From Takakia lepidozioides (lineage: Eukaryota > Plantae > Bryophyta), in assembly GCA_030704615.1 (NCBI GenBank), contig CM060731.1, positions 57,474,001 to 57,538,000 on the forward strand: a stretch of 64,000 nucleotides of DNA, in the 5' to 3' direction. A model generated the notes under the pieces. The model was not told where the DNA came from. It searched no databases and worked only from the letters and a program-made list of their open reading frames with translations. Position 1 is the first letter of the stretch. Every line of letters begins with the position of its first letter. The translations under genes were made by a program, and so were the position numbers. Below are positions 175-59,049 of this stretch, piece after piece.

Positions 175-176
175 TT

Positions 177-758: not shown

Positions 759-779
759 AAGAAATGAAAGACATGGGAC

Positions 780-8005: not shown

Positions 8006-8054
8006 CTTACAGAGATACCAAGGCACTACAGACATAAGGTCTCTCATATACTGG

Positions 8055-12165: not shown

Positions 12166-13819
12166 TAGGATGAAATACCCCACACCCCCCACATGTAATC
12201 ATCCCATTATAATACAACACCCTTATGCCTTTCCCTTTATGCAGCCTCTCCCATATTGTCCCCTTTGTCACATAGCTTATAATAAAATGTTTTTAATGGC
12301 CATGCAACAGCGATGGGCTCATTTTTTAATCTCTGGAAACCATCTATAGCATCCTGATAACAACGTAGGTGTTCAGTATCAGTGATGTTATCCCACTTCA
12401 TCCACATCTCGATGGAGATGGGTGCTAAGAGGTTGATGTTGGCTTGCGGGTGCCACATCATGTGCTTGTTGTTGGCCACGTCGAGCTCAACAGAGCGAGG
12501 GGGTGTCCAAGGGACAAAATGCTGATTCCCCGGGGTAGCGCCTGCTGCCCTGTCTTGTTCCACCTGTGACATTTCCACATGCTCACAGAAATCCTTCACC
12601 GCATCAATTTCATGTTCGGGAAGACACATGTGACTTAGAAGTGGGTGATTGGTGACGGAGGGGGTAAAATCCTGCTCAGCATTGGAGGACTCTTAGGACC
12701 AAAAATGATCCCCCTACTGGATCTGTCCGTTCCCAGAATCACAAAAGTCAACTCTGGAACTGGCACATGCCATACCTAAGATGTAATTGTGGACCTGGTG
12801 CTGCTCCGTCTGGATGTGTTTAAGTGTGGCTTGGTTCGATCATTTGGTCTGGTACATGATTAACCATCTTGGGGCTTTCTTTCCTGATGCAACATACCCC
12901 TCAGCGCAAAGCAAGTACTATAACTTCATTGTATGGCTGATGAGGGCTGCCAAATCTGCAATACTGGCTCAGATAACATTCCAAATGATCCGGGAGCTCT
13001 TTTTGGAAGCAGCAGAAACTTTTGCCGATAACCCCAAGGCAAAACTGCTTGATAAGCTACCGGACTCCAAGGGGGCTAGATTCATTGAGAGATTGATCAA
13101 ACCTGGATCTTCTCCGACAGCCTCCCCTCCCCAAACCTGCGTTTAAATAGCTATAAACGGCAACGCATTGAAGGGAAACACTTTCCATCAAAACAGGAGA
13201 CCCATAGGGGCAGGGGTGCTAATTTCAGAGGACGTGGGGGCTACCAAAGAGGTGGCAGGTTCAATCTTTCTCCAACTCCGAGAATGCTAAGTTCGTAACC
13301 AGAACATCCAATGGAGGCTCTGGATCCAATTCCTGCTCCACAATCGACAGTGGGAGCCATGGGTCGAACCGATCCAGGCAGATGGCAGGAGAGTTCTCCC
13401 AATCCACAAGAGGAACTTTGATGCCTGGGAATGATCATGGACAACCTAAAAATGGTATGTCCCTTTCCCTTATGTATGCAGATTTGTGTTGACTTTTGAT
13501 GAGCAAAAAGAAAGAAAACCATGCATAAAGCAGCTGGTTTCTTACACATGTAATACCTTGAATAAAACTAGTTTTTTTTCGGGGTCTATGCTCAATATAT
13601 ACCCCAATCACACCATTAAGGTTGATATACTTGTTTTGGATACCCAATTTGTCTAAAGGTAGCCTGATAATCCTTTTCAGGACATCTTCCGAAGGATTGG
13701 CATATGAGCAGGGAGAGTTTGCCCTTTTAGAGAGGAGTCAAGTATGCACTCCCTTACGGGTGAGTGCATACCACTCACTCCGTAAGGGCCTGCAATACCA
13801 GGGGTTGGATGGTGGGATT

Positions 13820-14610
13820 CCCTCTCTCTCCCTCTCTCTCCCTCTGGACATTGGGCTTATGGAATTGTTGTCCCGACTTCCATCCTTGAGGAAATTGAAA
13901 AAATTGCAAAATTGGTTGTTGCAGGAATTTTGGATGTTTTTTTCCAAAATTTTTTTTAAAAAACTATATTTTTTAGTGAAATATTTCTTCACTAAAAAAC
14001 CTGTGAAACTCACGTCAGTTTCTACTTTTTCAATCCAACCTGGATGAAAAAAGGACTTCATCTGATAGGGCCTAAATACAGGGCAAGACAAGTTTTTTTT
14101 TATAAAAATCCCCCCATGTTTTTATCTAACCTAGAAGAAATACGGACTACATCCGTTGAGTGCAAGACAGGATGAAAGCACGATGTCTTTCATCTTCCAC
14201 GAATGAGAAACGGACAACGTCCGTCGGACGGACGGACTGGCGGATGTTTTTCATCCTGAGAAGGATGGATGACGGGCCAGACAGGGGAAAACCCTGCGCA
14301 ATCCTAATGTCTTTCTTTTTGCGCTGCGAGAGCGCGCGCGATGGCGGCTTGGGAGGAGCGATGGTGCTCGTGCTGCAGATACCTTGAGCTGCCAATCGTT
14401 GAGTATTTATGGCTCCTGTGAGTGACGCCTGGGCGAGCTCTTTAAGGCGATGGCGGTGGCTTAGTGATGAGGGAAGATTCCCTGTCTCAGTTGTCTGTTT
14501 TTTTGCTGCACAAGGGAACCGCGGCAGTGATGGCGGAGGCACCACCTGCATGCCTAGGACGTTTCCCTAGGAGCCCTCCTCTGGATCTTTGATGAATGGC
14601 GGCACAAGGA
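13820..14610 (+). repeat. Unclassified repeat X, copy 1
   Basis: Near-identical inverted copy at 16638-17420 and another copy at ~24380-25146; GGATGAAA/TTTCATCC motifs; hairpin TTTTTAGTGAA-N7-TTCACTAAAAA at ~13970-13998. Confidence 0.85.
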
Positions 14611-15081
14611 GGGGCCTGTTCGTCTTTAGGGTTAGCCATACGTAGTGCAGCCTCAATCTTATCTCCTTTAAGACCATATTCCAAGAGTTCTTTGGTATCC
14701 TCTTCAAGGATAGTAGGCATTCGTTCATGATAGTCAATCAGTCTGATCATGTACTTGCCATTTTTATTTGCAGATAGGCACAGCTTAACCCGATCCTCTA
14801 GAGCCAAAGTCTCAAGCAACAAGATTGGATTGTCATCACCTGAATCAATAGCTGCTGAGTCCAATGCTTGCACTTTAGCATGGAAGTCCGTTGGCTTTGT
14901 TTGTGCCAACACAGCCTGAATAGCAGGGATTGGAGGGGGCAGCGGTGGCTGACATCCCATGGCCTGCAGCTCAACAATCCATTCCGGAGTCTGTTTGGTG
15001 GAACTCTACACATAAACTGGAAATTTAGCCTGGTGACCAAGGGATAGTGTATGCAAAAACCACTAAGCATACTGGACAGTA

Positions 15082-16637
15082 AGAGAGGGAAGATACTTTT
15101 TGTCATGTCAAGACAAAGACAGGACCCCTAGGGTCGTTGTCATGAAAGAATAAATAGACATATCAGCCACTTAACAGTGGCACCATCCATCAATCATCAA
15201 GCTTAGAAAATCCAGAATTGCATCCATGCACAGTAATGTGTTCATGTCAGTATTATTCATAATCCAGAGAGTATGCCACTGATGCTGATTGACCACCAGT
15301 CAAGATCATGATACACTTACAGAGGTCTGGGTGGGATGTCGGGTACTTGGCCATATTTTGGCCTTGATGTGGTGCAGGTCATATAGTCATACAGATTTAC
15401 TGTCTGCAAGCTGTAATCCAAGCATACTTACTAAAACCCCATGGGTGTCATGGAGGGTTTTCTTAGAAAAAAAATGAACACTTGGATATCACAGGTTTAA
15501 ATACCTTGCCTTGCCAGTATTTGTTTTAGACTGGTGTGCAGTACAGCTTGCCCCCACAGGGGATGTGGATATGTCTGGTAAGTTTTCCAGAACACCCCTA
15601 TACCTTTATTTCTTGCTACAGCTGAAAATCAAAGCTCATGACACAACAAGGTAAATATAAAGGACTGCATACACATCCTGTGACAGTATATGGTATTGTC
15701 GGTACACCCTTCACATCATTCCACATTTGACCATGTCATTACACCATGTCGAGGGGGTATTTCCACTTGACCACCCTAGCTGCCTCAAAAACAAATTACC
15801 ATTTACATTACTGCCATATTTCAGTGTCAGCCGAATAGCCACAGGCAGAAACTTCACCATACCCTGGCCTAAGCATCTAGCAAACAAAGCCATCTGGGTT
15901 AGAACATAACATGGGCCTTTTACCAACAGAGGTACCCGAGTAGCTGCAGCAAATAGTTCCTTGCAGCCTCTCAATTTGTTTCCAACTACCATAAGGTAAG
16001 CAAAGCAAACTAGGGCCTGGAAAACAGATGTGTGTCTCTCACACAAGCCATCATAAACCCGGATGTCACATCATAACAGAGGTTTTCCACTGGCTGGGCC
16101 GAACTAGCCCATCGTAGAAAGCATTACACTTGTTCTTCAAAAATCAAGGAAGGAAAGAGGCAGGATCAAGAAAAACCATAGAGTAGTTTAGTTTTTCAAC
16201 ATTTTAGGATGAGTCCCTGGCAAACGATTCCTTCCCTTGCTTTGCAATCCCACTTGGCATCCAGCAGCACCTAGACATCAGAATATTAAGTGGAAGCCCC
16301 CACCCGTGCCCGTCCCAAAAACAACCACAACGCATTGTGAGTTAGTGAGGATGCACGAGGTGTGTAGCAGGCTTCCACACTTGCTATCGAGGTCAAATAC
16401 ACTTCAATCTAAGTGCAGAGAATGCCAAAGCAAGCAAGGAAGCAAAACCAACAGAAAAAAAACCTTTTTTTACTGTTTGGGGGAGAGTCGCCATCTCTCC
16501 ACAAGCCTAACCGTGTAGGGAGGACTCCGCCAGCACCACAACACTGCTACCTTGACCAAAGCAAGGTCTTGCCAAGCACAAGAAAAAAAAAACTTGGTTT
16601 CAAAAGGTAGGGTTTATAAAGGGAGGGAGAGAGACTT
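15082..16637 (+). repeat. Unclassified repeat Y, copy 1
   Basis: Direct copy at ~20552-21890 (lacking ~190 bp); diverged inverted copy at ~18420-19745. Confidence 0.82.
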
Positions 16638-17547
16638 CCTTGTGCCGCCATTCATCAAAGATCCAGAGGAGGGCTCCTAGGGAAACGTCCTAGGCATGCA
16701 GGTGGTGCCTCCGCCATCACTGCCGCGGTTCCCTTGTGCAGCAAAAAAAACAGACAACTGAGACAGGGAATCTTCCCTCATCACTAAGCCACCGCCATCG
16801 CCTTAAAGAGCTCGCCCATGCGTCGCTCACAAGAGCCATAAACACTCAACGATTGGTAGCTCAAGGTATCTGCAGCATGAGCACCATCGCTCCTCCCAAG
16901 CCGCCATCGCGCGCGCTCTCGCAGCGCAAAAAGAAAGACATTAGGGTTGCGCAGGGTTTTCCCCTGTCTGGCCCGTCATCCATCCTTCTCAGGATGAAAA
17001 ACATCCGCCAGTCTGTCCATCCGACGGACGTTGTCCGTTTCTCATTCGTGGAAGATGAAAGACATCGTGCTTTCATCCTGTCTTGCACTCAACAGATGTA
17101 GTCCGTATTTCATCTAGGTTAGATGAAAAACATGGGGGATTTTGTATAAAAAAACTTGTCTTGCCCTGTATTTAGGTCCTGTCAGATGAAGTCCTTTTTT
17201 CATCCAGGTTGGATTGAAAAAGTAGAAACTGACGTGAGTTTCACAGGTTTTTTAGTGAAGAAATATTTCACTAAAAAATATAGTTGTTTTTATAAAAAAA
17301 AAAAGGATAAAGAGCATCCAAAATTCCCTGCAACCCAATTTTGCAAATTTTTTCAAGATGGAAGTCGGGACAACAATTCCATAAGCCGAGTGTCCAGAGG
17401 GAGAGAGAGGAAGAGAGAGGGAGAGATCAGGAAACAGAAAGAAAAAGAGGAAGGTGGGGGGGTGTGACTGAGTAGCAGCTGCTCAGTCCCCCCCCCCCCC
17501 ACCTTTTTGTTTTTTCTTTGTTGCCCGCTCGTCTCCCTCTCTCTCAC
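16638..17547 (-). repeat. Repeat X, copy 2 (inverted), ending in a G/C-tract hairpin
   Basis: Reverse complement of 13820-14610; hairpin GGGGGG..GACTGAG..CTCAGTC..CCCCCC at ~17455-17500. Confidence 0.85.
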
Positions 17548-20551: not shown

Positions 20552-21966
20552 AAAGAGAGGGAAGATGTTTTGTCATGTCAAGACAAAGACAAGACCCCTA
20601 GGGTCGTTGTCATGAAAGAATAAACAGACATATCAGCCACTTAACAGTGGCACTATCCATCAATCATCAAGCTTAGAAAATCTAGAATTACATCCATGCA
20701 CAGCAATGTGTTCATGTCAGTATTGTTCATAACCCAAAGAGTATGTCACTAATGCTGATTGACCACCAGTCATGATCATGATACACTTTCAGAGGTCTGG
20801 GTGGGGTGGCGGGTACTTGGCCTTGATGTGGTGCAGGTCAAATAATCATACAGATTTACTGTCTGCAAGCTGTAATCCAATTATATTTACCAAAACCCCA
20901 TGGGTATCATGGAGGGTTTTCTTAAAAAAGAAAGGAACACTTGGATATCACAGATTTAAATGCCTTGCCTTGCCAGTATTTGTTTAGACTGGTGTGCAAC
21001 ACAGCTTGTCCCCACAGGGGAGGTGGATATGTCTGGTAAGTTTTCCAGAATACCCCTATACCTTTATTTCTTGCTACAGCTGAAAATCAAAGCTCATGAC
21101 GCATCAAGGTAAATATAAAGGACTGCATACACATCCTGTGATAGTATATGATACTGTCAGTACACCCTTCACATCATTCCACAGTTGACCATGTCATTAC
21201 ACCATGTCCATGGGGTATTTCCACTTGACCACCCTGGCTGCCTCAAAAACCAGTTACCATTTATATTACTGCCATATTTCAGTGTCAGCCGAATAGCCAC
21301 AAGCAAAAACTTCACCATACCCTGGCCTAAGCATCTAGCTGACAAAGCCATCTGGGTTGGAACATAACAGGGGTTTTTTTACCAACAAAGGTACCCAAGT
21401 AGCTGCAGCAAACAGTTCCTTGCAGCCTTTCAATTTGTTTCCAACTACCATAAGGTAAGCAAAGCAAAATGAGTCCTTGGCAAGCGATTCCTTCCCCCGC
21501 TCTGCAATCCCACTTGGCATCCAGCAGCACCTAGACATCAGAATATTAAGTGGAAGCCCTCACCTGTGCCCGTCCCAAAAACAACCACAACGCATTGTGA
21601 GTTAGTGAGGATGCACGAGGTGAGTAACATGCTTCCACACTTGCTATCGAGGTCAAATACACTTCAATCTAAGCGCAGGGAAGCAAAACAAACAGAAAAA
21701 GAATTTTTTTAACTGTTTGGGGGAGAGTCGTCATCTCTCCACAAGCCTAACCGTGAAGGGTGGATTCCACCAGCACCACAACACTGCTACCTTAACCAAA
21801 ACAAGGTCTTGCCAAGCACAAGAAAAAAGAGCTTGGTCTCAAAAGGTAGGGTTTATAAAGGGGGAGAGAAACTTCCTTGTTCTACCCAAGATGCCGTCAT
21901 TCATCAAAGATCCAGAGGAGGGCTCCTAGGGAAACGTCATAAGCATACAGGTGGTACCTCCGCCAC
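20552..21966 (+). repeat. Repeat Y copy 2 plus first ~75 bp of adjoining repeat X
   Basis: Colinear with 15082-16716; broken at the inversion breakpoint ~21967. Confidence 0.82.
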
Positions 21967-21967
21967 C

Positions 21968-24189
21968 TCACAGCCCCAAAGGCCTCAGGCACGGCCTGAC
22001 ACAGCCCCTCACAGCCCGTCACAGCCCGTCACAGCCCCAAAGTCTCAGGCACGGCCTGTCACATACCCTCACAGCCCGTCACAGCCCAGGCGTCTGCCCG
22101 TCACAGCCGCCACAGCCCTCACAGCCCTAAAGGCCTCGGGCACGGCCTGACACAACCCCTCACAGCCCCTCACAGCCCGTCACAGCCAAAGGCCTCACAC
22201 GGCCTGTCACAGCCCTCACAGCCTCAGGCCACGGGCACAGCCTGTCACACGCCGTCACAGCCCACAGGCCACTGGCACAGCCGGTCACAGCCCGCACACC
22301 GACCACTCACAGCCTGTCACATGGCCGCCCCATCCATGGCCGCTCTGGCAGTTTAGCCATTTCTCCAAGGGGTTTAGCCACGCCAAGCTAGGGTTTGTGT
22401 CTCTTGGACTCTAGGCTTTCTTCCACCGAGCTATGGCGGCTGTGAGGAAATCAGCAAGGTATTCTTGCTCTTTCGGCTCCCACACACCACCATAGTAGCC
22501 CTAAGCCATGAGGTGGTTGCCACAAACCAAGCCTTCTTTCTTACTTAGCCTCCCCAAACACGCCACTAAACTCAATGGCAAACAACCAAGCCCTGCTGGT
22601 TCCCAGCCCTTATGAGCACTCATTCAAGCACTCTCCTTGGCCATAGCATTTGTCTTAGAGCCTATTCCCCCCCTACACCTGCTGCTTCAAGAGTTGCGCT
22701 CCCTTCAAGCTTGAAGTTGAAACCCCAACTCACATAGGCCCTACAAGTGCTTCTTTCACTCCAAGTGGAAACCAGCCCTAGACCTTCCGTTCTAGCTCTC
22801 TAAAGCTTGAAAACAAGAGCCTCAATGGGCTGAAGGCATGCTCCACACATGCCCCACTCTCACCATAAGAGAATCAGCTCCTTTGCTTCATTTCTTGCAC
22901 CCACAAACCTGAAAATACAAGCTTTAGCAGGCTGAAAGCATGCTCCACATGCCCTACAGGGAAACCAGCCCCTTCCTTCCTTTCTTGCACTCCCACACCT
23001 GAAAGTGCAAGCCTTCACCAGGCTGATAGCATGCTCCACACATGCATTGCCCTCACATAAGGGAAGTCAGCCCTTCCCTCTTCCTTGCTTGCCCTCCAAG
23101 CTTGAAGATGGAAGCTTCAATGAGCTGAATACATGCTCCACACATGCAACCTCTTCACACACGAGATATCAGCCCCCTATCTTGGCTCCTTGGCTCCTTG
23201 ATGCTCTCTAAGACAAGACTAAGCACTCCAGAGCCTTTGCCAAGCTCCTGAAACCCTAAGGCTTACATTTCCAGCCACAAGACACTTCTCTTGTGGTGCA
23301 AGAGCTCTTCTTCCAAGCTCTGAAACCCTAGGTGCACATTCCATGGCCTTGCCGTACCTCTTAGCTCCTGTTCTAGCCCTGCTCTTGCCATGACAAGAGC
23401 CCTCTCAATGCTGAAGCTCGAGATTGAAACCTAATCTCACCATACACCACAAAGTGCACTGATTTGCCCCAAGCCAAATCAACCCTTTCGCTTGGTCTTG
23501 CAATCCTTCACACAATGAAAGCTCGCATTCCCAAGTCCAGTTCTCAGCTTTGCCACCAAAGCCACTATAACCTGCTCTTGACTGGTCCTCTTCCCAATCG
23601 TGCTTGCTCATGCATGTACACAATCTGAAACCATCAAGGTGCTCTGGAATTACCTGCAGCATGGTGCTTTCATCTCTGAAGCTGAAGATCGAATGCCAAG
23701 GTCTACCACCTCGTAACCCACATCGCCTCCGCTTCTAACAACCGAGAGCTCCACGCTGCTCCTTGCATAACAACTTGGTTTCTCTCATTCTCAAGCAAAA
23801 ACCACAAGTGCTACAACTAACTCGTATCTGGCACTCACAGATACGAGCTCATCTTTCTCGAGTGATAAAGAAGAAGAATACAAGCACAAGCTCATGCGAG
23901 CTCACAAAGCTGAAGCATAAACTCATGCATATATAACCTCATCACTCAAATACAAGTCAAGCCAAATGCACCCCACGCCATAGGGAATCCACACTACGGC
24001 GCCATAGCTAGGCGCGGTGAGGCTCAACTCGAGAAAGATGAGCCTCCCGCGCTTGCCATGAAGATAACCACTCCAGGGCCTAAATCTGCATTGACCCCTG
24101 GATTGACACTTGGGCCAATCCCAAATGTCAATATGTAAAAGCTAGTTATTTCCTAGCTAGTTTCACACTAGTGGTAAAATAACTTGACA
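21968..24189 (-). mobile_element. Inverted 5' terminus and 5' UTR of Gypsy element C
   Basis: 23863-24189 is the revcomp of 33686-34012; the GGGCTGTGA array at 21968-22320 continues into 25147-25330 once the inversion is undone. Confidence 0.8.
23863..24189 (-). repeat. LTR segment P (5' terminus of element C, TGTCAAG...TTTATCA)
   Basis: Near-identical to 33686-34012; flanked by GCCG (24190-24193 = CGGC on -). Confidence 0.9.
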
Positions 24190-24379
24190 GCCGGCAGAGC
24201 AAACGGATTGTCCGCCCCTTTCTTTGGGGCAGGGGACTTCTTCTCTTTCCCCATAAGCTGGCATCTGTCATGCAAACCCACAAGTTGGCCTCATTAGGAA
24301 ACAACCTCTACATTCCAGATCAAAAACAAAAAAAACCAAGCATGTCGGGGGCTAAGAGCAGCAAGTGCTCGGGGTCTCG

Positions 24380-25146
24380 AGAGGGGACAACAAAGAGAAA
24401 ATAAAAAGGTGGGGGGGGAAGTGACTAAGCACCACCACCAGCTGCTGAGCACCTACGGGCTCAGTCGCTCCCCGCGCCCCCCCCCCCATTTTTTTTTTTT
24501 TTGGTTTCCTGATCTCTCCCTCTCTTTCCCTCTGGAAACTGAGCTTGGAAAAAAATTGCAAAATTGGGTTGTAGGGAATTTTGGATTTTTTTCATCCAAA
24601 ATACAAATTTTTCCCTAGTGAAATATTTCTTCACTAAATACCTGTGAGTTGCAAAACTCCCGTAAGTTTCTACTTTTTCAAATCCAACCTGGATGAAAAA
24701 AGGACTTCATCTGACAGGACCTAAATACGGGGCAAGACATGTATAAACCCCCGATGTTTTTCATCTAACCTAGATGAAATACGGACTACATCCGTTGAGT
24801 GCAAGACAGGATGAACGCACGATGTCTTTCATCTTCCGCGAATGAGAAACGGACAACGTCCGTCGGGCGTACAAGCTGGCGGATGTTTTTCATCCTGAGA
24901 AGGATGAATGACGGGCCAGACAGGGGAAAACCCTGCGCAACCCTAATGTCTTTCTTTTTGCGCTGCGAGAGCGCGCGCGATGGCGGCTTGGGAGGAGCGA
25001 TGGTGCTCGTGCTACAGATACCTTAAGCTGCCAATCCTTGAGTGTTTATGGCTCCTGTGAGCGCCGCCTAGGCGGGCTCTTTAAGGCGATGGCGGTGGCT
25101 TAGAGATGAGGGAAGATTCCCTGTCTCAGTTGTCTGTTTTTTTGCT
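24380..25146 (+). repeat. Repeat X, copy 3 (inside inverted segment)
   Basis: Matches ~13820-14506 and, extending further, the reverse complement of ~16740-17547. Confidence 0.82.
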
Positions 25147-26085
25147 ATGACGGGCTGTGAGGGGCTGTGACAGAGGCCTTTGGGGCTTGAGGGGCTGTGG
25201 GCCGTGCCTGAGGCCTTTGGGGCTGTGAGGGGCTGTGGCGAGCTGTGACGGGCTGTGACAGCTGTGGCTTGTGCGGCCTGTGGGGCTGTGACCCTGTGAC
25301 CTGTGTAGGGCTGTGACAGGCTGTGGCATGTGAGCTGTGTGGGCCTGTACTGGTCTGTGGTGGCCCGTGTTGACCTGTGGACGGCCTGTGCTGACTCGTG
25401 GAGGCACTGGTGGACTGCCTAAGGACTGTATGTGGTCTGAAGGCCGAATTTTGAAGCTCGTGGAGGGCGGTTTGAGGAGTATCTTCATGATATTCCCATG
25501 GTCATGCAAGTGAGGGAGAGAGGAGAGGAAGAGTGTTGGGATGAGGGCATGCTGGGGTTAGGCATTGCTTTAGCTTCTCTTCCTCGTAGTTTCCACCCTC
25601 TCATTAGGCCAAGACCTTTCCGTAGGTGGAGGCAAGAGTCAGTCCGGGTTTGGGCTGGGGTGTCCTTGCAGGAGCAACACCGTGGAGTTGTTTTTGGTGT
25701 GGGGGAGTTGTCTGATTTCTTGTGTTTGGATCCCCTCCATACCTGCATGCTTGACTGTGCGCCATGCTAGTTTTGTGTGGGCGCTTGTTTTTATAGGTGA
25801 TTGGTCCGGATTTGATCACCGGCCAGTCCTAGAGCATGCTGTCGATGGTGAGGCTGGGGTGATGACCAGCCAGACCATCATTGTTTCTCCTGTGGTGAGG
25901 TTGGAGGTGATGACAAGCCAACCATAGGAGTGCTTGCGGTGGATGCAGGTACAGGTGTAGGCTATGTTAGGAACTTAGTATTCCAAACCATAAGCCGCAA
26001 CAGGTTCTCTACCCGGTTACCTTGTGGAGAGGGGGTTAGGGACATGTTCATGACCGGTTGAGTGTCAACACGGAGGTGCCACTAG

Positions 26086-27630
26086 TTGCTGGGGACAGTG
26101 CCGGTTCGAGCACTAGCGATACTAGTGGGTACACGAGACGAGGTGTGCGGTTTAGGCCACCTTCACCTCCTGTGTCTTCTACGGAAGGTTCTGATTCGGA
26201 TTGTGAATCAGGAGGACTCATACCGGCGGTGCAAGTTGTTTCTTTGCCATTGTTGTGGGACACAATGGAGGAGATGTATGGAGCTACCAAGGGCGGTGGG
26301 CACCATCGAGTTGGATGATTTTATCCAAGAGTTTGATAGTTGGTGTGATTTGCAGCAAATGCGCAATCCACAACTATTTACGCCTTTCATGGCATGGAAG
26401 GGGCTGTTTCAGCACCTTGAGGGGCCGCCTATGGATGATTACCATGAGTTCAGGCGGGGGCATGAGGTTGAGATCGAGGAGTGGAGGATGTACTGGTCAC
26501 CCGACTATGTCTCCATCACTAGGGGCACTAGAGCCACGAGGGCAGTGGCTACACCTGCCGCTGCACCGGCAGCTTCAGCAAGTAGCAGTGGGACTAGTGG
26601 GACTGGTGGTACAGTAGCTACGACGTCCACCCAAGCCACTACCGCACCAGCACTAGCACCCGTGCCTGCCTTCAACCCTGTTGTGGAGTTCTTCGAAGAG
26701 TTGAGAGGGAACTACCAAGGGGTGAGGACAGAGAAGTTGCGGAGCTTGCAAGAGTTCCAACGGAAGCCGACCGAGAGCTTGAGGGAGGCTTTCACTCGCA
26801 TGAGGCGCTTGATAAATGTAACCCAAGGGGTTACGGAAGCTCAGGCAGTCCAATTCTGGTATGGGATATTGGACAAGGAGCTGAGGAGAAGGGTGCGGGA
26901 TGCAACTCTCCTACAAGCGGCCCAACCCACCTTAGCAAATGTGTTTTTGCTGGCAGAGCGGATAGAGCTCAACATGGTGGAGGAACGAGTGGTCATGGTG
27001 GGATTTGCTAAGGAGACACCACGGGGTAGTGGTGCTCCTAGCCAACCACTACCTCAACGTGCTCAAGGCAACAAGGGGCTCAGGTGAAGCTCAGGGAAGG
27101 CAGAGAGGACCTCAGATGCAGGGGTCTCTCCCTTCATTTGCTGGCCAACAACGGGCGGATGTGGTGCTGGACATGTGGAGGACCCCATGTCAAGAAGGAT
27201 TGCCCAGAGGGAGGCAAAGGGCGGCACATGCACAGCCTGCACAGTTGCAGTGTGGGCATTGTGGCAAGCACGGGCATGGAGAGGCCCAGTGTTATGGTTT
27301 GCATCCTGAGTTGCGCCCAGGCCAGTTCCAAGGGAACAATGGTGGCCGGGGGCGAGGTGGAGCAGCCCAGAGAGGACGAGGTGGCCAGCCACGAGGTGCA
27401 GGCCAAGGGCAAGCTCAACATGGCCAAGGACGCGGAGGTCAGGGTGTTGACCAAGGCATGGCCAACCGGCTTCAGCAGCTAGAGCAGAGGCTCGCTGCCA
27501 TGGCTACAGCTCAGGTGGTACCGGCTCTAAGGCCGGATGGTCCACCTCCTGCTCCTGAGGGAGGAGATATGGGAGGCATGGGATTCATGTGTGGAGCAGC
27601 ACTACCACTAGTGCAGGGAGTCTGCTGCAG
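26086..27630 (+). pseudogene. gag: gag of element C (Gag domain, two CCHC knuckles, RG-rich tract), frameshifted
   Basis: LQEFQRKPTESLREAFTRM; CWTCGGPHVKKDC; CGHCGKHGHGEAQC. Confidence 0.82.
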
Positions 27631-28169
27631 CCGTGACTCGAGGAGCAGCACGAGTTCCTGAGCCACGAGGTGCAGAGGTGGAGTTGGATCCACAGCGTGG
27701 GGAGGCAAGCCGTCAGGCTAGGCTTCCTCAGTCATTCACATTGGCGGAGACAGTGTCGACGCCATCCATGGCACCTAGTTCTCGCCCGACTGTTACCGAG
27801 GCGGAGGTTACTATGCCATTGGGGAGAGCTACACGGGTAGCACCACTACCTAGTGTTGCCAAGGCTACGGCAGCTAGTGTGCTGCTAGGAGCGGCCACAT
27901 CTGTGTGCCAGGCTCCATTGTTCTCGGCTACCATGATTGCGACGCCGGGGGTAAGACCAGCTGAGGTGTTCAGGCTGGCAGCTACACTCTGTGAGAGTGG
28001 GGGTTACTTCATCTTCTGCGGAGATAGTGGGAGTGTAGTGCCGGAGGGATCCTCGGATTTGAGGGTCAAGACTGCCACGGCGGCGCCATGGCAAGCTGCA
28101 GCTGCCAGGTTGATGGAGCTGCCAGCTAGGCCAGCCATTGAGCGCGCCATGGTGACACCTGGAGTTGTC

Positions 28170-28560
28170 ATGTTAGACAACCAGGATGGCATTTTCTGTT
28201 TGAGTGGACCGGCAGGCAAGAGGTACCGGCCACTGCGGGTCTTGTTGGACTCGGGAGCTCAGCCATTGATGCTGGGCAGAGCTGCTATTGCAGGCTTGGG
28301 CCTCACGGAGGCGGATATGGAGCCTTGTCCTTTCCAGATACAGACGTCTCTGGGAGGATCGGAGCAGGCTCGGGGCATGACACGGCGTGAGTTGGCTATC
28401 AGACTACGGCCGGATCACCCTACAGATGGCTCAGTGATGCGAGCCAAGGCCATTGTGACAGACGCGGTCTCATACGATGTCCTGGTTGGTGGGGCAGTGT
28501 TGTACCCCATGGGCTTCACCCTGGATTTTTGGGAGGAGTCAGCTTCCTATAGGCCTGCAT
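28170..28560 (+). CDS. Retropepsin aspartic protease domain
   Basis: RVLLDSGAQ ... SYDVLVGG in ORF 27633-29216. Confidence 0.82.
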
Positions 28561-28960
28561 GGCAGTCAGGGGAGGGCCGGCGTGTGCAGCTCCCTGTGAC
28601 GTTCATAGGAGGAGTTGCGGTTGCCCAGCGAGGCAAGATGCCGACACTAGCAGCATTCACAGCGGCAGTGAGTTGGCCTAGAGAGTTGCTTGAGGGCAAC
28701 GCTCATTCAGAGGATGTGCCACCTCCGGGAGAGCAGGATGACATGTATGGTATGGCGGAGTTGCCTACCATGGTTGCTCAGACTCCATTGTGGGGCACGA
28801 GCAAGGATTTGCAGCGGATGCTGATCGACGGGTGCAACAAGCCTGGGTGGAGGCTTTTGTACCGTCAGGAGAGGAGGAGAGTGTGGGGATTGCACCAGGA
28901 CCACCTCAGTTGTCTCCATTGGACACCACACCTATTGTGTGGCAGTATCCGGATGAAGGC

Positions 28961-29900
28961 ATTTGTCTTCTGGACTTGTTTGGCGGGATCAGCACCGGAT
29001 TGGCTGCTGTGTTACAGGCAGGTGTACGAGTTCGGCGTTACCTGTATGTGGAGAGGGATGAGACTGCACGACGCGTTTCACTTCGCCATGTTGCTCAGTT
29101 GGTGCAGCGGTACCCTGAGTTGTGTCGGTGTCTGCAATTCGTGGATATCAGCAGGCCTTGCCAGCAGACATTTCGTTGCTGGGGGCGCAGGATTTGGAGC
29201 GGGTTGGCTCCATTGATCTGGTAGTGGCAGGTTGGCCCTGCCAAGGGCATTCATCAGCCGGGCATGGCAATGGATTGCGAGACTCGAGGTCGGGTCTGTT
29301 TTGGGAGATGGTGCGGGTTTTGCGCCACTTGCAGCTTCATCAAGCTGTATCTCCAGCATACATCTTGGAGAATGTGCCACTGATGGGCGATTCTCGGGCC
29401 AGGGTGATGGCCAGTGTGCATCAAGTCCGGTCGTGGCTTGGGTCAGCAGTGTTGCTAGATGCAGCTACAGTGGGGTCACGGCTCATCGTCCACGGCTATG
29501 GTGGACTAACTTGATGCCACCCGCACTGCTCAAGCGTGCATTTGATGGGGTGCAGCGGCCAGCACATCTCACAGTGGATAGCATTCTGGACACAGGGAGG
29601 CAGTCTCAGCGTGTGAGACACGATGACCGTTCGCCTTTGGCAGTGGTCAACAAGGTGGGTCAACCACGAGCAGCATTACCTACACTGCTCAGCTTCCCAG
29701 GATCGCATGCTTTCCGGGATAGTGGACCTGGCCTCCTGTGGGATGCTCAGTTGCAGCAGTTAGTGGAGCCTAATGCTGACGAGCGTGAGCGGGCAATGGG
29801 TTTTACCACTGGTACCACGGCGGTGTCGTCTCTTTCTGAGGCATCACGTCGTCAAGTGTTGGGGCAAGCAATGGATCTCAATTGCTTGACCTGGATTATC
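28961..29900 (+). pseudogene. C5 cytosine DNA methyltransferase domain (DNMT3-like) within the polyprotein; 2-3 frameshifts
   Basis: Motif I LLDLFGGISTG, II YVERD, IV DLVVAGWPCQG (catalytic PC), RSGLF, VI ILENV, VIII DAATVGS.AHRPRLWWTNL, IX ERERAMGF, X RRQVLGQAM, all in canonical order. Confidence 0.92.
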
Positions 29901-30299
29901 AGCTTGGCTCTGGCTGAGCAACGCAGAGTGCGGAGTACACTTCCCTCATGGTCTCTCTGCCTACCGAGACGGTACAGGCAGTGAGTGGGGGCGAGCATGT
30001 GAGGACCACGGGGTGCATGCATCCATGGCACACGTGGGAGGTGCTCGAGGTTCAGAGGGAGTTGGCAGCCAAGGCGGCTGTGATGGATGAGGTTGGGGAT
30101 TCTTCTCGGTTGAGGAGGTCCTCAAGGATGAGATGATGGGGCAGGATGAGGCCTTGTCATTGACTGAGCAGGCAGGGAGTACTGCTCAAGAGGTTGCAAC
30201 ATAGCAACCACTGGACGCGTCCTCTACCTCTAAGCCCACTGGACTTAAGGTTGCAGTTACGGAGGACAATTGGGAGCCTGACATTGGACCCATTGTCAC

Positions 30300-31620
30300 C
30301 GGAGGAGAGAGACGACGTATACGGCGGTTCCTGAGGGCTTACAGGAATTGCTTTGCCTTCAGTTTGAAGGACTTGGGAGCACTGAAGGGTCAAGAGATCC
30401 GTATTGAGTTGGCCACTGACACGCCAATCTTTCGGAGACCCTATAGATACAGTGACATGGAGAGGTCTTTGATTCAGATGAGGACTCAAGATCTCTGGTT
30501 GACGTATGTGCGGTGATTACCGGCCTGTAAATCGTCAGACCAAGTCCGATAAGTATGCCATGCCAACACCAGAGGAGATCTTTGATGCCATCGGGCATGC
30601 TAAGGCCTTTAGCACTTTGGATTTACGATCCGGATATCACCAGTTGCCAATCAAGGAGGCGGACAAGCAGAAGACGGCATTCTGGGGGATCAATGAGCAC
30701 GGCAAGGATTGCCTATATCAGTGGCGGTTCTTACCATTTGGGCTTAAGAATGCTCCTGCAGAGTTTCAGAGAGTCATGGATAGGATTCTAGCAGGGGTGG
30801 ACTTTGCTCGGTGCTACATAGATGACATCATCATCTTTAGTGTTACGATGGAGGAGCATGAGAGACACCTTCAGGTGGTATTGGAGCGCTTGAGAGCGCA
30901 CGGATTGAAGTTGCATCCGGGGAAGTGCAAGTTTTTCCACAACCAGATTGAGTATCTGGGTCACATGATATATCCTGGAGGATTGGGGGTACAGCAGACT
31001 AAGGTAGAGGCATTGCACAAACCACGCCCCACGGATGTGAGCCGAGTTCGAGCTTTCATGGGGTTGGCAAACTATTATAGACGGTTTGTCAAGGGATTTA
31101 GTACCATTGCAAAGGCTCTAACCAAGCTGACCAAGGTGGACCAGGAGTGGCAGTGGGAAGATGAGCAGGAACGAGCTTTTCAAGAGCTCAAGGCGAGGTT
31201 GACCTCGGCGCCTATCCTGAGACGACCTATCAGGGGGCGTCCCTTTCAGCTGCATACGGATTGGAGCATGCTGGGGCTTGGAGCGGTGCTCACACAGGTG
31301 GATGATGAGGGAAGAGAGTTCGTAGTGGCTTATGCTAGCCGCTCGAACAACGCTGCAGAGGCTAAGTACAGCTCATATGAGGGAGAGTGCTTAGCTGCAG
31401 TGTGGGCCGTGGCACACTTCAGGTGCTATCTATACGGCAATCTTTTCACCCTTGTCACGGATCACCAGCCACTCAAGTGGTTGATGGAGTCAGACAAGCT
31501 TACGGGGAAGCTTGCACGGTGGGCACTCATACTCCAGGAGTATGACTTTCAGGTTGTGCATCGACCGGGTTTGGTCAATCGGGATGCGGATGGATTGAGT
31601 CGCAATCCATGCATGAGCCA
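30300..31620 (+). pseudogene. pol: RT and RNase H of element C (deletion in RT N-terminus at ~30495)
   Basis: [31 protein letters not shown]; LHTDWS, YSSYEGEC, TDHQPL, ADGLSR. Confidence 0.93.
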
Positions 31621-31949
31621 GCAGGATGACACTGGAGCTCGGTGGCATGGTGAGACGGACGAGGAGATGGTGCCGGGATGGCACGCATCTGCATTTTTGT
31701 GTATCTTGGCATCGGGAGGTCAGGTTGGACCTACAACAGGGATGACTGTAGACGGAGTGTCTGAGGACCCTGAGGCTAGTGATGAGCCAGGTGGTGCCAG
31801 AGATATACATGAGGATTCGGCTGTGTTGGACTACCTCCGCACGGGAGACACGGCAGCCATTGTGACTGCCAGGAGAGGGATCGGATCCTGCAACGAGCCA
31901 AGAGGTTCAAGTGGGAGGGGATACACCTACTTCGAGTGTGGGAGGATGG

Positions 31950-33244
31950 TCGGGTGAGGATTGTGCCTCACCCCACACAGCGTGCACGGTTAGTGCGGCA
32001 TGCCCATGAGGAGTTGGGGCATTTTGGAGTGCGACGCACTCAGTTTACTGCAGGGGCAGTATTGGTGGCGTGGTATGCATACAGAGGTGCAACAGTTCGT
32101 GGCTAGGTGCATGGTGTGTGACAGGGTGCGTGCTTCATTCAACGCCCCTACACCACAGTTGCATCCTTTACCAATCATGGGATTGGGCTACAGGTGGAGT
32201 CTTGACTTCGCAGGACCGTTGCCACTGACTATGCGCCACCACAGATATGTGTTGGTGATGGTGGAGCACTTCTCCAAGTGGATTGAGTTGGTTCCATTGC
32301 CTGACAAGGCTAGTGAGGGGGCTGCGTATGCATTCTTGGATCGTGTGCTTAGCCGATTTGGTGCTCCAGCTGAGGTACTCACGGACCAAGGGAGAGAGTT
32401 TCTTGGGGGAGTTTCAGGCTTTGTGTGATAAAGCCTTGATAGACCACCGCACCACTTCTCGGATCATCCTGAGGCCGATGGCTTAGCAGAGAGAGTTGTT
32501 CAGACGGTGAAGAGGGGTTTGCGCAAGTATGGCTTGCAGAAGGGACACCTAGGAGATTGGGATCTTCAGGTTCCTTGGTTAGCCATGGGCTACAGGTTCA
32601 GCAAACAAGCATCACTTGCCTCCTTCTCACCATATTTCCTTCTCTTTGGCCGAGAGCCGGATTTGCCTGCAGCCATTCGTAGGGACACTGCTCAAGTCCT
32701 TAACCTTGACGATCCGGACGTGTGGGTACGTGCATGTGATCAGCGTGCAGAGTTGTTCAAGAAAGTCATGCCCATGGCTTTTGAGAACCTTGCCATTGCA
32801 CAACACCGTGATACGTTGAGGTATGCCACTATACGTGGTGGAGGATATCGTCCTGGGGTTCGGAGGTTTAGCCCTGGTGACTATGTTTATTTGCAGCAGA
32901 CTGCTCCTACGACTCTGGATGTTACTGCAGGGCGTGTTATTCTGAGGGTTCGAGAGGTGTTGCCCTCAGGGGTCCTGATCTTGGAGGGTCGGGATGGCAT
33001 GACTTGGAAGGACCATGTGCGTAATTGTGCGCCATGTCACCTTCCCAATGTCGATGGCAGAGTTGACCCAAACTTGGCAGTGGTACCTGCAGGTTTGAGG
33101 TGCATGCTCTGTGGGTCTGCCAAAGGGGCAGCCACCATGCTGGTGTGTGATCGATGCTCAAGGGGTTGGCATATGGGATGCTTGACACCACCTCTTGAGA
33201 AGGTTCCTGACGGAGATTGGTTGTGTCCACACTGCTTGGGATAG
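31950..33244 (+). pseudogene. Integrase with C-terminal PHD finger (33101-33235)
   Basis: H..LGH..YWW..CMVC, WSLDFAGP, TDQGREF; CMLC..LVCDRC..WHMGCLTPPLEKVPDGDWLCPHC (C4HC3). Confidence 0.9.
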
Positions 33245-33504
33245 TGGCAGTGGACATGACTGGAGGCAGCTAACAAGACATGGGAGGCCAAGCTCATAGG
33301 AGTCAATACATGAGATCCCAAGCTCAAGTTCACAGGTTGCAAGACGGCGACTAACGATGGGGCAACTCTTGCACCCGGCCTCTTGATCTATCGAGTTTGA
33401 GTGTAGTAGGGATAGTGGTGGAGGACTTAGTGAGGCTATGGTCACTATCACATCTTGTGGCTACCTGGACTTAGAGGGACCTAAGCACCAGCTAGGGGGG
33501 CGAT

Positions 33505-34012
33505 TGTGTGGACTAGTGACTGCCATAGTGGGCAGCATAGTGGCAGCCTAGTGACTGACTAGTTGTAGCCTAGTGGTTGGACTAGTGGTGGACTAGTGGT
33601 ACTATAGTAGTGTGTGGTGTGCACATGTGTTGTGTGGTTTTGGACAGCGATGTAGTTGTGTAGCGATATGTATGCGCACGACAGCTGTCAAGTTATTTTA
33701 CCACTAGTGTGAAACTAGCTAGGAAATAGCTAGCTTTTACATATTGACATTTGGGATTGGCCCAAGTGTCAATCCAGGGGTCAAGGCAGATTTAGGCCCT
33801 GGAGTGGTTATCTTCACGGCAAGCGCGGGAGGCTCATCTTTCTCTCGAGTTGAGCCTCACCGCGCCTAGCTATGGCGCCGTAGTGTGGATTCCCCATGGC
33901 GGGGTGCACTTGGCTTGACTTGTATTTGAGTGATGAGGTTATATATGCATGAGTTTATGCTTCAGCTTTGTGAGCTCGCATGAGCTTGTGCTTGTATTCT
34001 TCTTCTTTATCA
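33505..34012 (+). repeat. Complete LTR of element C = Q (33505-33683) + GC + P (33686-34012)
   Basis: Starts TG right after the PPT, ends CA; P repeated at 23863-24189, Q repeated at 34014-34187. Confidence 0.85.
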
Positions 34013-34013
34013 T

Positions 34014-34187
34014 TGTGTGGACTAGTGACTGCCATAGTGGGCAGCATAGTGGCAGCCTAGTGACTGACTAGTTGTAGCCTAGTGGTGGACTAGTGGTGGA
34101 CTAGTGGTATACTAGTGTGTGGTGTGCACATGTGTTGTGTGGTTTTGGACAGCGATGTAGTTGTGTACGATATGTATGCGCACGACA
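34014..34187 (+). repeat. Second copy of LTR segment Q (3' terminus of element C, ...GCACGACA)
   Basis: Direct repeat of 33505-33683; followed by CGGC. Confidence 0.9.
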
Positions 34188-34191
34188 CGGC

Positions 34192-36338
34192 ACGTGTGAC
34201 GCGCCAGGGCGTCTCACGGTTAACCAGCCCCATCGACAGCCGCAGCCGGAGGGCTTGTCTGCCCCCCGAGGCCAGTACCCCCCCTCTTGTCCACATCTTG
34301 GATGCGCTAGGGGCCGACTCAGCCAGCTCTCCTATTCGGGAGGTTGTTGCTAAGCCGGATGCTTAGTTGAGCACACCCCCGGCCACCAAGACGGGTGAAA
34401 TGTACCTTGGCAAGCACATCACCCGTTCGGGGCCCGGTATGGGCAACTTTTGGATGTCACCCCCATAGCAACCCCTTCCTCCGCAACAAAGGCTGCACTT
34501 GCCAAGGCCCAACGTCAGGTTCAAGGGCCTTTGAAAGCCTCTATTGCTAGCCCATTGTTGTCGATGAGGGAGGAGGAGACGAGGAGGGCCAATGAAGTGG
34601 CCGAGATAGCAAATCGCCTCGAAGAAGTCAAGTCGGGTGAGGGCTTCTACCCTGATACGCATTTGGGGGGGGGAGGCGGAGGTATGGGCCGGTTTGGAGC
34701 GGCCTACCCGATCAGCGACGCCGCCCCTTGAGCCTGAGCGGTCAGCAAAGAAGGGCCTGGACTACGGGCCGTCGCCGCCGGCTATGCTCCACATCTGGAA
34801 TCTACTTCCAGTGGCGCTCCGGGAGGGGATAGAGCGGGCACATCCGGCAACGGGGACTCCTGCCACATCGGGTGAAACCGGGGGCGAGTCGGACAAGCTT
34901 GAAAAGGTACAACTGTCGCACCTTGTTTCCATGTTTATCCGTTCCTTTGCATGCATGATTTTTCTTTGTTGTTTGTTTCTTTTTTGAATTTGGAGGGGTT
35001 ATTTGTCTTCAGGAGCAACAACATGGCTGGCCTCATTGGTGCAGTCCAGTGGGGTTGCCAATGAGGGAGAGCACGTGGTGTTCATGAAGGACCCAAACAC
35101 CAAAGGTAAGAAGAAGAGGCCTCGACCTCCCGAGATCCCTTTTACCATCAATGAAGGGGCTGCCGAGGAGAGAGAGAGAAGGGAGAGGGAGAAGGAGAGA
35201 GAGGAAGTAGTGGGGAAGGGGAAGGAAAAGAAGAAGAAGAAGAAGAAGAAGTCCCATGGAGAGGAAGGGGTGAGTGTGCATGCGGGGAGGGCAGTGGGGT
35301 AACAAAGGAGCAGGGGAAGGAGGCTACAAAGAAGGGAGAGGGTGGGAAGAAGAACATGCCCTTGGCAATACAGGACGTGGAGTTGGCAAAGATTGTCGTG
35401 CCACCGGTGGAGGTGAATCGCCATGGTGAACCCTGCGGTGCGTTCTGGGAGGCTATGAAGAAGTCAGCCTTCGAACTCGCAATGAGGTGGTTCCCTTTGA
35501 ACATCGAGTGGGCTGATTAGCACTTTGGCGCAAAGCGGGCATATGCCCGTGAGTTAGACCGCCGGTTTCCGGGGAGTGACACAAGGGTGATGGAGATGGT
35601 GGGGCGAAACTTGAAGGACAGGAGGTACCGTGCCAGACAGATCATTCGGAGGGCAATGGAAAAGGGGGCCATACCCAAACCACCTTATGGAATTACACAG
35701 GTTGGCAAATCCTGAATCATGTCACCTTCCATTTGTCGCATGTGCATTAATGAGGTGGATTCGATGCAACGTATGTGTGTAATTCACTAATTGTTGGGGG
35801 GGGGGGGAGGCGCATAGGTATCGTGGGATGCACTCATTGCGGAAGAGATTGATGCCTCAAACAAGGCCAAATTTGACCGGGCACGCAAAGCAACAACAGT
35901 CCGCCTTGACAAGCACGAATCCACATACAAGTGGGGCGCCGGATCCAAGGGTTTTATCTTGCGATTTGTAAGTCGTACTTCCCTATGGATTTTGTTATGT
36001 TTTCTTTTTGGCTCCATCATCGCGAAGAACTGACTTTAATTTGTGGCATGTGTGTAGCAACGCGCGTTTGAGAGGAAGCCATCTCCGGTAGAGTACAACT
36101 ACGCCAAGGAGCATGGTTGGCAATCCCTCATGAAGAACATGGCCAACACTGAGGAGATGAGTGCACTACAGGGCACTAGTATGGATGAGGTCGGGGTCAT
36201 GGCCAGGGATTGGATGAGAGCTCTGTGGGACCTAGGGGAATGCCGCCTCATTTAGGTGCTCTGGCAAAGGGCGCAGAGTCATCAGGCTCATCGGATAGCT
36301 CTGAGTCCTCCACTGAGGATGGGGATGAGGATGACTAG
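34192..36338 (+). pseudogene. CACTA second ORF (TnpA/Transposase_24-like), spliced; first codons displaced to 24190-24254 (-)
   Basis: GT-AG introns ~34908-35012, ~35701-35817, ~35968-36057; basic/acidic tracts; KFDRARK..YKWGAGSKGF; lies just inside the right subterminal repeats. Confidence 0.6.
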
Positions 36339-39297: not shown

Positions 39298-39414
39298 GGC
39301 AAAAGAAAAAGCTGATAGAAGAGAAGAGAAGAGCAAGAGCAAGACAAGACAAGACAAGACCAAGAGAATTCCAAAGAACGCACAACAAAGAGCACGCACA
39401 ACAGGGAGTGCAGG

Positions 39415-40143
39415 TGTCACGCACCTCACTTCGGTAAGCTCCCCTTCAAGTTATAGTTACTCGCTTTGATGCGCGCGCCTAACTCCCAAACTGGCCGCCG
39501 GGCCAACTCGGAGCTTCGGCTGCTCACCGGGACATAACGGTCCCCCTTTACTCCTCCACAAGACCCTCTCTCAATTTGGGCCTAGTAGAAATTCCCTTTG
39601 GTCGATGGCAGTCTGGAACAGCTCCCCACACCTTGGTCGCTTTCCGGCTCGCACGCTTACTCACTCGTTTTTGGTCACCCACGGGCTTGCACCGTTCTCG
39701 GGGTTACTACTCCCTATATATACTTCTATGACTGTCCGCGGGGGTTTCACAAACAACCATGCCATTTTATGGCGAACCACCACGAAAACCCTCGACTCTC
39801 GGTGATGAGTCGCGGTGAGTCTTGGCCCACCCACCACGGTCCCATTGGACCGTGATGAGTCCCAAGACTCCCCACGACTCCCACCACAAGGTCTTCGCCC
39901 CCATGGTGAGTCCTATGTACCACCCCCACTAAGTCCCACTAAGCTACCACCCACCCCTCGTGGAACCACCCCCACCGCAACCCGGTGTGCAGGGCTCCAC
40001 CTAGTGAGCGCCTCCACCTCCTTGAGTGCCTTGGGTACTCAAGGGTGCTTCAGCCCCAGCATCTATTATTGCCACTGCCCCCACCATAGGGGCAGCCCCT
40101 GTCGTGTCCCAACCCCCTGCCCTCAAGGCAAAGCGTCGTGACA
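39415..40143 (-). repeat. 3' LTR of element B
   Basis: Bounded by the inverted repeat TGTCACG...CGTGACA; first 500 bp match 45655-46154. Confidence 0.85.
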
Positions 40144-45640: not shown

Positions 45641-45652
45641 GCTCTGATACCA
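45641..45652 (-). promoter_or_regulatory. PBS complementary to initiator tRNA-Met (TGGTATCAGAGC)
   Basis: GCTCTGATACCA 2 nt from the LTR end. Confidence 0.95.
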
Positions 45653-45654
45653 AG

Positions 45655-46154
45655 TGTCGCGCACCTCACTTCGGTAAGCTCCCCTTCAAGTCATAGTTAC
45701 TCGCTTTGATGCGCACGCCTAACTCCCAAACTGGCCGCCGGGCCAACTCGGAGCTTTGGCTGCTCACCGGGACATAACAGTCCCCCTTTACTCCTCCACA
45801 AGACCCTCTCTCAATTTGGGCCTAGTGGAAATTCCCTTTGGTCGATGGCAGTCCGGAACAGCTCCCCACACCTTGGTCGCTTTCCGGCTCGCACGCTTAC
45901 TCACTAGTTTTTGGTCACCCACGAGCTTGCACCGTTCTCGGGGTTACTACTCCCTATATATACTTCTGTGACTGTCCGCGGGGGTTTCACAAACAACCAT
46001 GCCATTTTATGGCGAACCACCACGAAAACCCTCGACTCCCGGTGATGAGTCGCGGTGAGTCTTGGCCCACCCACCACGGTCCCATTGGACCGTGATGAGT
46101 CCCAAGACTCCCCACGACTCCCACCACAAGGTCTTCGCCCCCATGGTGAGTCCT
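45655..46154 (-). repeat. 5' LTR of element B (truncated)
   Basis: Matches 39415-39914, then switches abruptly to a family A LTR. Confidence 0.92.
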
Positions 46155-47255: not shown

Positions 47256-47294
47256 TTTACCCCTTCCTCCCTCAAAAAGCCGTGTCCTCACGGT

Positions 47295-50843: not shown

Positions 50844-50929
50844 CTTAGACTCACAGAACTGCTTTGGTTGTAACAACTGCAGGAATGCCTGTAGTGCACA
50901 AAGCAGAAACGTATGGTTGCCGCAGAAAG

Positions 50930-59037: not shown

Positions 59038-59049
59038 GTCCCATGTCGT

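Follow-up and report, generated by a model that had tools for sequence, protein, structure and literature searches.

The locus examined here raises the question of how a long terminal repeat (LTR) retrotransposon can be inserted by ends lying in the middle of its own LTR. The element is a Gypsy retrotransposon of the bryophyte Takakia lepidozioides, located in a 64,000-nucleotide stretch (NCBI GenBank assembly GCA_030704615.1, contig CM060731.1, positions 57,474,001 to 57,538,000 of the forward strand), which will be referred to as the window and whose own numbering is used throughout. Its repeat consists of two segments, P and Q, arranged in the order P-internal-Q-gc-P-t-Q. A dedicated internal site sets the ends of the element, and this arrangement is real, programmed and lineage-wide: the layout recurs in at least three other subfamilies with TGTC...GACA ends and 4-bp target duplications.

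Layout and junctions of the window element

All the junctions of the P-internal-Q-gc-P-t-Q order were found at the coordinates first proposed for them (Table 1). P1, read from 24189 to 23863 on the minus strand, and P2, on the plus strand (33686-34012), are identical at 320 of the 325 aligned letters, and Q1 and Q2 at 173 of 174. The internal Q/P joint reads CACGACA-gc-TGTCAAG and the P/Q joint TTTATCA-t-TGTG, and CGGC is present at both ends of the element. The string GACAGCTGTC occurs only once in the window, at 33680. The prediction that the Q/P joint is a palindrome losing a 2-nt spacer upon insertion was borne out, since the GC at 33684-33685 is missing from the ends of the element; the loss of a 2-nt spacer between CA and TG matches the 3' processing carried out by integrases.

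An empty target site was detected in a contig from run X5, an independent sample, in which the left flank is joined directly to 34188 with a single CGGC. This contig was seen from both sides, in the form of loose ends before 34188 and before 24190. Because it carries only one CGGC, the ends of the element and the 4-bp duplication are exact, with the proviso that the target is a multi-copy repeat and that the contig may be a paralog rather than an allele. The junctions, the order of the repeats and the CGGC duplication were thus upheld by both the repeat alignments and the empty site. The original prediction also relied on a continuous reading frame across the empty site: this frame is indeed open over 79 codons, but two of the three right-flank frames are open over 53-57 codons anyway, and the argument was dropped as evidence for precise ends.

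As in Ty3/Gypsy elements, a primer-binding site follows P1 and a G-run polypurine tract (PPT) precedes Q1. The LTR as set by these reverse transcription signals is Q-gc-P, and the insertion ends fall in the middle of it; its left end as defined by copying is probably right after the G run (33501), and not at 33505. The transcript is likely to start about 147 nt into P, and we infer that P1 contains the promoter-side part of the unique 3' region (U3), the repeated region (R) and the unique 5' region (U5). In the relatives described below, self-priming matches of 9-17 letters were found at P positions 161-171 in 7 of the 12 loci tested, those in the other loci being short or absent, and the G run before Q is also present. 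Self-priming is known from the Tcn1 and Tf1/Sushi groups (PMC6317226). The proposal that the conventional LTR is Q-gc-P, running from PPT-TG to CA, holds for the unit defined by the copying signals, but in the relatives, the ends that these signals delimit do not keep TG...CA: subfamily C starts with ATAC after the PPT.

P1 lies on the strand opposite to the coding region and points away from it, and the left 3.2 kb of the element region, from 21966 to about 25146, appears to have been flipped after the insertion, an event for which the split-repeat finding does not account. The target repeat has two paralogs in the window, at 16209-17530 and 13819-14610, and in these the host join is intact: 21965 connects to the inverted sequence of 25146, with about 23 additional bases in between; by this comparison, about 23 host bases were lost at the inversion. 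A GGCTGTG tandem array in the leader was split by the inversion, the right breakpoint of which shares the 3-nt sequence AGC. In the relatives L022, L043, and L070, P1, the leader and the coding region are collinear on one strand, and the original length of the window element would have been about 11.3 kb. Given the inversion, 21966-23862 also belongs to the element, beyond the span first proposed (23863-34191), and 24194-25143 to the host. The multi-copy target repeat is present in rearranged and inverted pieces at 13819-17530, 20553-21975, and 24381-25146, and could be linked to no protein family.

Recurrence of the ends and of the palindrome

The copies in the same genome are visible only as short contigs, and the summed contig depths were set aside as a measure of copy number. 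Run X3 contains 37 contigs that exit the element precisely at 33683 and continue into unlike flanks (median 221 letters, agreement 0.37). The P-t-Q joint is present in 12 contigs (agreement 0.98) and the Q-gc-P joint in 21. In X5, the P start at 24189 is seen next to a different flank in one contig. No unlike flanks were found at the copying-defined ends among the matches listed.

The set of relatives comprises 86 loci, 80 from metagenomes and 6 on usable genome-bin contigs; L087 and L088 (31% identity) were excluded, and no relatives were found among viral contigs. A terminal Q end was located in 47 of the 86 loci, corresponding to 41 distinct ends after those sharing flanks had been merged. 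Loci without a usable end, because the contig was too short, truncated or too diverged for the three reference repeat pairs (L018, L019, L033, L034, L052, L056, and L066, for example), were left out of the end counts.

On the 3' side, the element terminates with the last letters of Q in each of the 41 distinct cases (GACA in 38 and AACA in 3), and the flanks that follow open with 13 different dinucleotides, GC being found in only two of them. On the 5' side, TGTC opens each of the 12 distinct ends and Q precedes none of them, and the two complete direct LTRs carried at the ends of Ty3/Gypsy elements are absent. Eighteen of the 3' ends belong to a long form ending in Q-P-Q, two of them with internal deletions, and 23 to a short form in which a single Q is followed by the flank; the latter include the ambiguous L031, where GCTG follows Q. 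Three copies stop inside P2 (L026, L044, and L011) and L072 is truncated in it; a complete P bordered by flank is seen in none of them. Among the nine copies with both ends, six show perfect 4-bp duplications (ACTA, CATA, TACA, CCAA, AAAG, and TCCC) and two match at three of the four positions (GGTT/TGTT and GCAT/ACAT). TG...CA insertion ends with a target duplication of 4-6 bp are those of Ty3/Gypsy elements. The recurrence of TGTC...GACA ends with 4-bp duplications, which had been anticipated from the window, was therefore found both in the X3 contigs and in relatives of several subfamilies, and the contrary case, an ordinary Q-P...Q-P pair, was found in none of the copies examined.

Two other observations were made on these loci. 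L019, L033, L034, and L018, which lie outside the counts, belong to one more subfamily, also decayed: its palindrome is worn, and Q is repeated in L033. L081-L086 are eukaryotic retrotransposon contigs in prokaryotic bins (a cyanobacterium, a mollicute, an archaeon, and a halanaerobe), where they are likely to be due to bin contamination.

Exact matches to GACAGCTGTC number 11 within the 91 kb located just downstream of integrases; the remaining 691 kb contain a single one, which is itself preceded by a G-run PPT. The palindrome GACA-GC-TGTC is still present at integrase identities as low as about 45% (L045, L055, L083, and L084: 45-51%), and in L045, L083, and L084, GACAGCTGTC lies inside longer perfect palindromes; the changes observed in the palindrome of older copies are mostly transitions. 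In the Q-gc-P joint, the spacing is always 2 nt, whereas the P/Q joint changes by a few letters from copy to copy, even within one subfamily, and contains an insertion of about 20 nt in L008.

Possible routes from the copied DNA to the insertion

In the light of these data, the integrase very probably uses the internal palindrome. The original prediction was that a 2-LTR circle is opened there by the DDE integrase: the dedicated internal site is established, but the cutting by the integrase and the circular substrate are what we infer from the sequence comparisons. We lean slightly toward the idea that the copied ends are joined into a circle first and then cut by the integrase. The transcript of the long form would start about 147 nt inside P1 and end in P2, and ordinary, self-primed reverse transcription would yield linear Q-gc-P...Q-gc-P DNA, the copied ends of which would undergo imprecise end-joining by the host, giving the P/Q joint and a circle. 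End-to-end joining is the only possible source of this U5-to-U3 joint. The integrase would then read GACA-GC-TGTC as a pre-joined pair of ends and open the circle in the 5' LTR, the central GC would be dropped, and insertion with a 4-bp stagger would give P-internal-Q-gc-P-x-Q. The foamy-virus integrase, which cleaves a palindrome at 2-LTR junctions, provides a precedent (PMC1180852).

The short form, P-internal-Q, might result from one-LTR circles opened at their sole palindrome or from later Q-by-Q recombination. Based on Q divergence, the short forms are no older than the long ones (p 0.51 and 0.82), which cannot separate direct insertion from later recombination. The short form would be unable to replicate because it has no second P, and only the long form would do so, because the first 146 letters of P and the strand-transfer repeat must come from P2. 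The chances are about even that the whole scenario is that of an old green-plant Gypsy lineage in which the attachment site moved into a U3 palindrome, circles became the obligate substrate, and the integrase became a sequence-specific double-strand cutter opening only the 5'-LTR site.

Several observations weigh against this circle-first route. Since two identical palindromes are present in a finished 2-LTR circle, the mirror form P-x-Q-gc-P-internal-Q would be expected about as often as the long one; it was named at the outset as a possible outcome, but none of the 12 5' ends shows it (p about 0.001 to 0.04 for 11 ends, depending on the share assumed), and it is the unforeseen short form that accounts for more than half of the 3' ends. 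Since the mirror form is missing, one palindrome site must be preferred; in the circle model this is the 5'-LTR site, perhaps as the result of early loading of the integrase on the plus-strand strong-stop duplex, which is speculative. No free circle was seen among the contigs of the relatives, and no row of unlike flanks was found at the P start among the X3 matches listed. L062, one of the nine two-ended copies, has no duplication, and in L073 and L080, which form one branch of the tree, there is no clear palindrome in the 0.5 and 1.65 kb following the integrase. Some of the variation of the P/Q joint could be due to later decay in old copies. The contig L081 (1-9285) was considered as a free circle or a conventional end and rejected: it is circular (127-letter end overlap), with one Q-gc-P followed by the leader, which repeat collapse explains, and it may be a one-LTR circle or a collapsed repeat.

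The mirror form and the short forms also bear on an alternative in which the same site and the integrase operate on linear DNA without any closed circle, both half-sites being inserted from the palindrome of the 5' LTR and the loose ends being repaired afterward. This is possible, although we give it distinctly less credence than the circle. In this repair, end-joining would yield the long form and, equally tentatively, annealing between the two Q the short form, which makes it a direct source of the numerous short forms and fits with their being no older than the long ones. It accounts for the same ends, duplications and variable joint, and early loading on one site suits the missing mirror form; its agreement with the sequence data is about as good as that of circle formation. 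However, it would leave a chromosome break at every insertion and requires the same site bias as the circle model, and one-LTR circles or later recombination account for the short forms equally well.

It is improbable that the element follows a templated route similar to that of DIRS and Ngaro elements, in which an RNA running through P2 and Q2 would carry an inherited P/Q joint and the Q-gc-P joint would serve as a template for the ends before insertion by the integrase. The A1-B1-A2-B2 layout is the same as in PAT and Ngaro (PMC4157794), the 12 X3 contigs agree closely at the P-t-Q joint, and the single permutation seen would be accounted for. On the other hand, the PPT before Q1 and the self-priming site after P1 are conserved, as in ordinary LTR copying, and the joint varies among copies of one subfamily. 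We deem slightly less probable still that a nuclease other than the integrase, of host origin or encoded by another domain of the element, opens the palindrome, leaving the integrase merely to trim and insert. The strictly kept 10-bp palindrome resembles a recognition site and retroviral integrases normally need free linear ends (PMC11054761), but no other nuclease domain was detected in the open reading frames (ORFs) scanned, and exactly two letters are lost after CA, as in integrase chemistry. Lastly, although the window copy is rearranged and frameshifted, a one-off aberrant insertion, a nested insertion or an assembly artefact is refuted by the recurrence of the layout in 18 distinct long-form loci of several subfamilies, the empty site, and the matching duplications, and has practically no probability left.

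Known systems, coding region and neighboring elements

Circles are dead ends for every well-studied LTR element. A retroviral circle junction was claimed to be a substrate by Panganiban and Temin in 1984, in a test where the junction was placed inside the genome, and this model was displaced in the 1980s by the rule that DDE integrases insert linear reverse-transcription ends (PMC11054761). The window family resembles the retroviral 2-LTR junction in having a symmetric CA-spacer-TG joint used by the integrase, but in retroviruses, linear DNA is the precursor and cleavage of the junction restores the normal ends (PMC11054761, PMC1180852), whereas here the site is fixed, inherited in U3, does not coincide with the end-to-end joint, and determines where each of the observed copies begins and stops. 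For an entire lineage, the normal route of integration appears to go through an internal junction-like site, which would allow ordinary LTRs to give rise to the split repeats found in PAT and Ngaro with no recombinase involved. The 10-bp target and the 2-nt loss are directly testable in vitro, and Marchantia polymorpha, in which there are close relatives (79% identity), is a tractable model. An integrase inserting circles with one short site could serve as a tool. Paired-LTR finders would miss such elements or set their bounds wrongly, and the latter are therefore likely to be under-annotated.

Tyrosine-recombinase elements with split direct repeats integrate from a joined intermediate, a trait they share with the proposed route. 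The A1-internal-B1-A2-B2 repeats are those of PAT, TOC, Kangaroo, Ngaro, and Viper, but unlike the PAT/Ngaro group, the window family has a DDE integrase, a 4-bp staggered duplication, a Gypsy-type reverse transcriptase (RT), a PPT and a primer site, and no tyrosine recombinase in the ORFs scanned (PMC4157794). The resemblance is convergent.

The layout itself has been mentioned once, without explanation: the legend of Figure 4c in de Mendoza et al. (2018) likens the repeats of KnitGypsy-Dnmt3 from Klebsormidium nitens to those of DIRS, in the order A-coding region-B-A-B (PMC5890265). The initial statement that no Gypsy lineage was known to do this must be restricted accordingly. Like the window element, KnitGypsy-Dnmt3 has Gypsy domains and a DNMT3-like methyltransferase in pol; the available text of that paper mentions no target duplication, palindrome, self-priming, PHD finger, short form or mechanism (PMC5890265). 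The two very probably belong to the same lineage. The K. nitens integrase-PHD protein P0014, which may or may not come from a KnitGypsy-Dnmt3 copy, is 54% identical to that of the window. It is sister to L035 in our tree (100/99) and both group with L045 (100/100), the backbone being without resolution; these two neighbors carry the GACA end and the palindrome, the L035 contig reading CCCGACA followed by 7 other letters. No methyltransferase polyproteins of K. nitens were found on searching. A 2026 preprint on methyltransferase-bearing retrotransposons names a streptophyte Gypsy-DNMT3, with nothing about repeats in the part available (10.64898/2026.05.21.726589). No account of the palindrome, the duplication or the mechanism was found in the literature, Repbase, Dfam, theses, and most subscription papers being outside the search.

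The window family shares with canonical Ty3/Gypsy elements the order gag-protease-RT-RNase H-integrase, the PPT, a self-priming site (as in Tcn1 and Tf1/Sushi), the TG...CA insertion ends and the 4-bp duplication (PMC6317226), but has no identical terminal LTR pair, and its insertion ends differ from its copying ends. It differs from the chromodomain Gypsy elements in that a PHD finger replaces the chromodomain, and from the bryophyte clade Phygy in lacking the NCGN target preference reported by Neumann et al. (2019; PMC6317226). Gypsy-7a_cRei of Chlamydomonas is another green-lineage Gypsy with a PHD finger; in the available description, the latter is listed before the integrase, with left and right LTRs and no split layout stated (10.1101/2022.06.16.496473).

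The coding region has the pol order protease-RT-RNase H-integrase and the Gypsy-type RT of the Ty3/Gypsy superfamily. The best PDB match of the relative P0004 is Ty3 Gag-Pol (E 1e-91), and that of P0129 is DNMT3A. The integrase spacing is D-x34-E in 100 of the 105 matched proteins (156 examined), the usual spacing, D-x35-E, being one residue longer. No match with a tyrosine recombinase (Phage_integrase) was detected in the 48 window ORFs of the element region or the 8 ORFs of L043, some short ORFs being outside the scan, and no further nuclease domain was found among the ORFs scanned. The chromodomain that follows the integrase in the Tcn1 clade was not found, only the PHD finger being present. 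The closest named proteins are those of Marchantia polymorpha (79% identity), Calypogeia, Sphagnum, Klebsormidium (54%), and chlorophytes. In P0043, the methyltransferase is found between RNase H and the integrase, as opposed to before the RT in the window and P0016, so that it changes place within the lineage. A search of 21900-34300 in Rfam gave no match.

Table 1. Features of the element and its flanks, in window coordinates
Feature	Position	Strand	Evidence
5' leader inside the inversion, ending in half of the GGCTGTG array (21966-22320)	21966..23846	-	Collinear leader of relatives
Self-priming primer-binding site	23847..23862	-	16/16 letters complementary to P positions 147-162
P1 (A1), real 5' end, starts TGTC	23863..24189	-	Repeat comparison
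Left copy of the CGGC target duplication	24190..24193	-	One copy at the X5 empty site
Host flank (multi-copy repeat), not element, inverted with P1 and leader	24194..25146	-	Paralogs 16744-17530 and 13898-14507
Rest of 5' leader, opening with the other half of the GGCTGTG array (25144-25359); right inversion breakpoint	25144..26085	+	Sequence
gag, frameshifted	26086..27661	+	Weak Retrotrans_gag match (E 9e-4); CCHC-like motif visible
Protease region, LLDSGA motif at about 28290	27612..28900	+	Read from translation; no Pfam match
C5 cytosine methyltransferase domain, DNMT3-like, frameshifted	28900..29984	+	Pfam DNA_methylase (E 1.8e-13)
RT and RNase H	30503..31957	+	Domain matches
DDE integrase (H2C2 and rve, frameshifted) with C-terminal PHD finger	31813..33244	+	rve and Integrase_H2C2 matches
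PPT, AGGGGGG	33494..33500	+	Same G run precedes Q in relatives
Q1 (B1), upstream part of U3, ends CACGACA	33505..33683	+	Repeat comparison
Internal attachment-like palindrome GACA-GC-TGTC	33680..33689	+	Sequence; recurrence in relatives
P2 (A2)	33686..34012	+	Repeat comparison
P/Q joint, U5 end joined to U3 start	34013..34013	+	Differs among copies
Q2 (B2), real 3' end, ends GACA	34014..34187	+	Repeat comparison; X3 and X5 contigs
Right copy of the CGGC target duplication	34188..34191	+	Empty site with one copy

A second Gypsy family is present in the window at 46155-60638 (minus strand) and 1-8600, with conventional TG...CA LTRs of about 1.0-1.1 kb. These LTRs end in GCGCGACA, which resembles the CACGACA of the split-repeat family, and contain the same GGCTGTG array. 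A solo LTR at 57445-58491, bordered by the 5-bp duplication GGGAT, lies between the leader and the gag of an element of its own family and is absent from the copy at 1-8600. Direct repeats of 504 bp (39411-39914 and 45651-46154) surround a gag and an RT on the minus strand, both of them ending in AGTCCT, 6 letters short of the LTR end of the neighboring family. An in-frame tandem repeat of about 60 bp (51551-51846) is located inside the pol of the conventional element.

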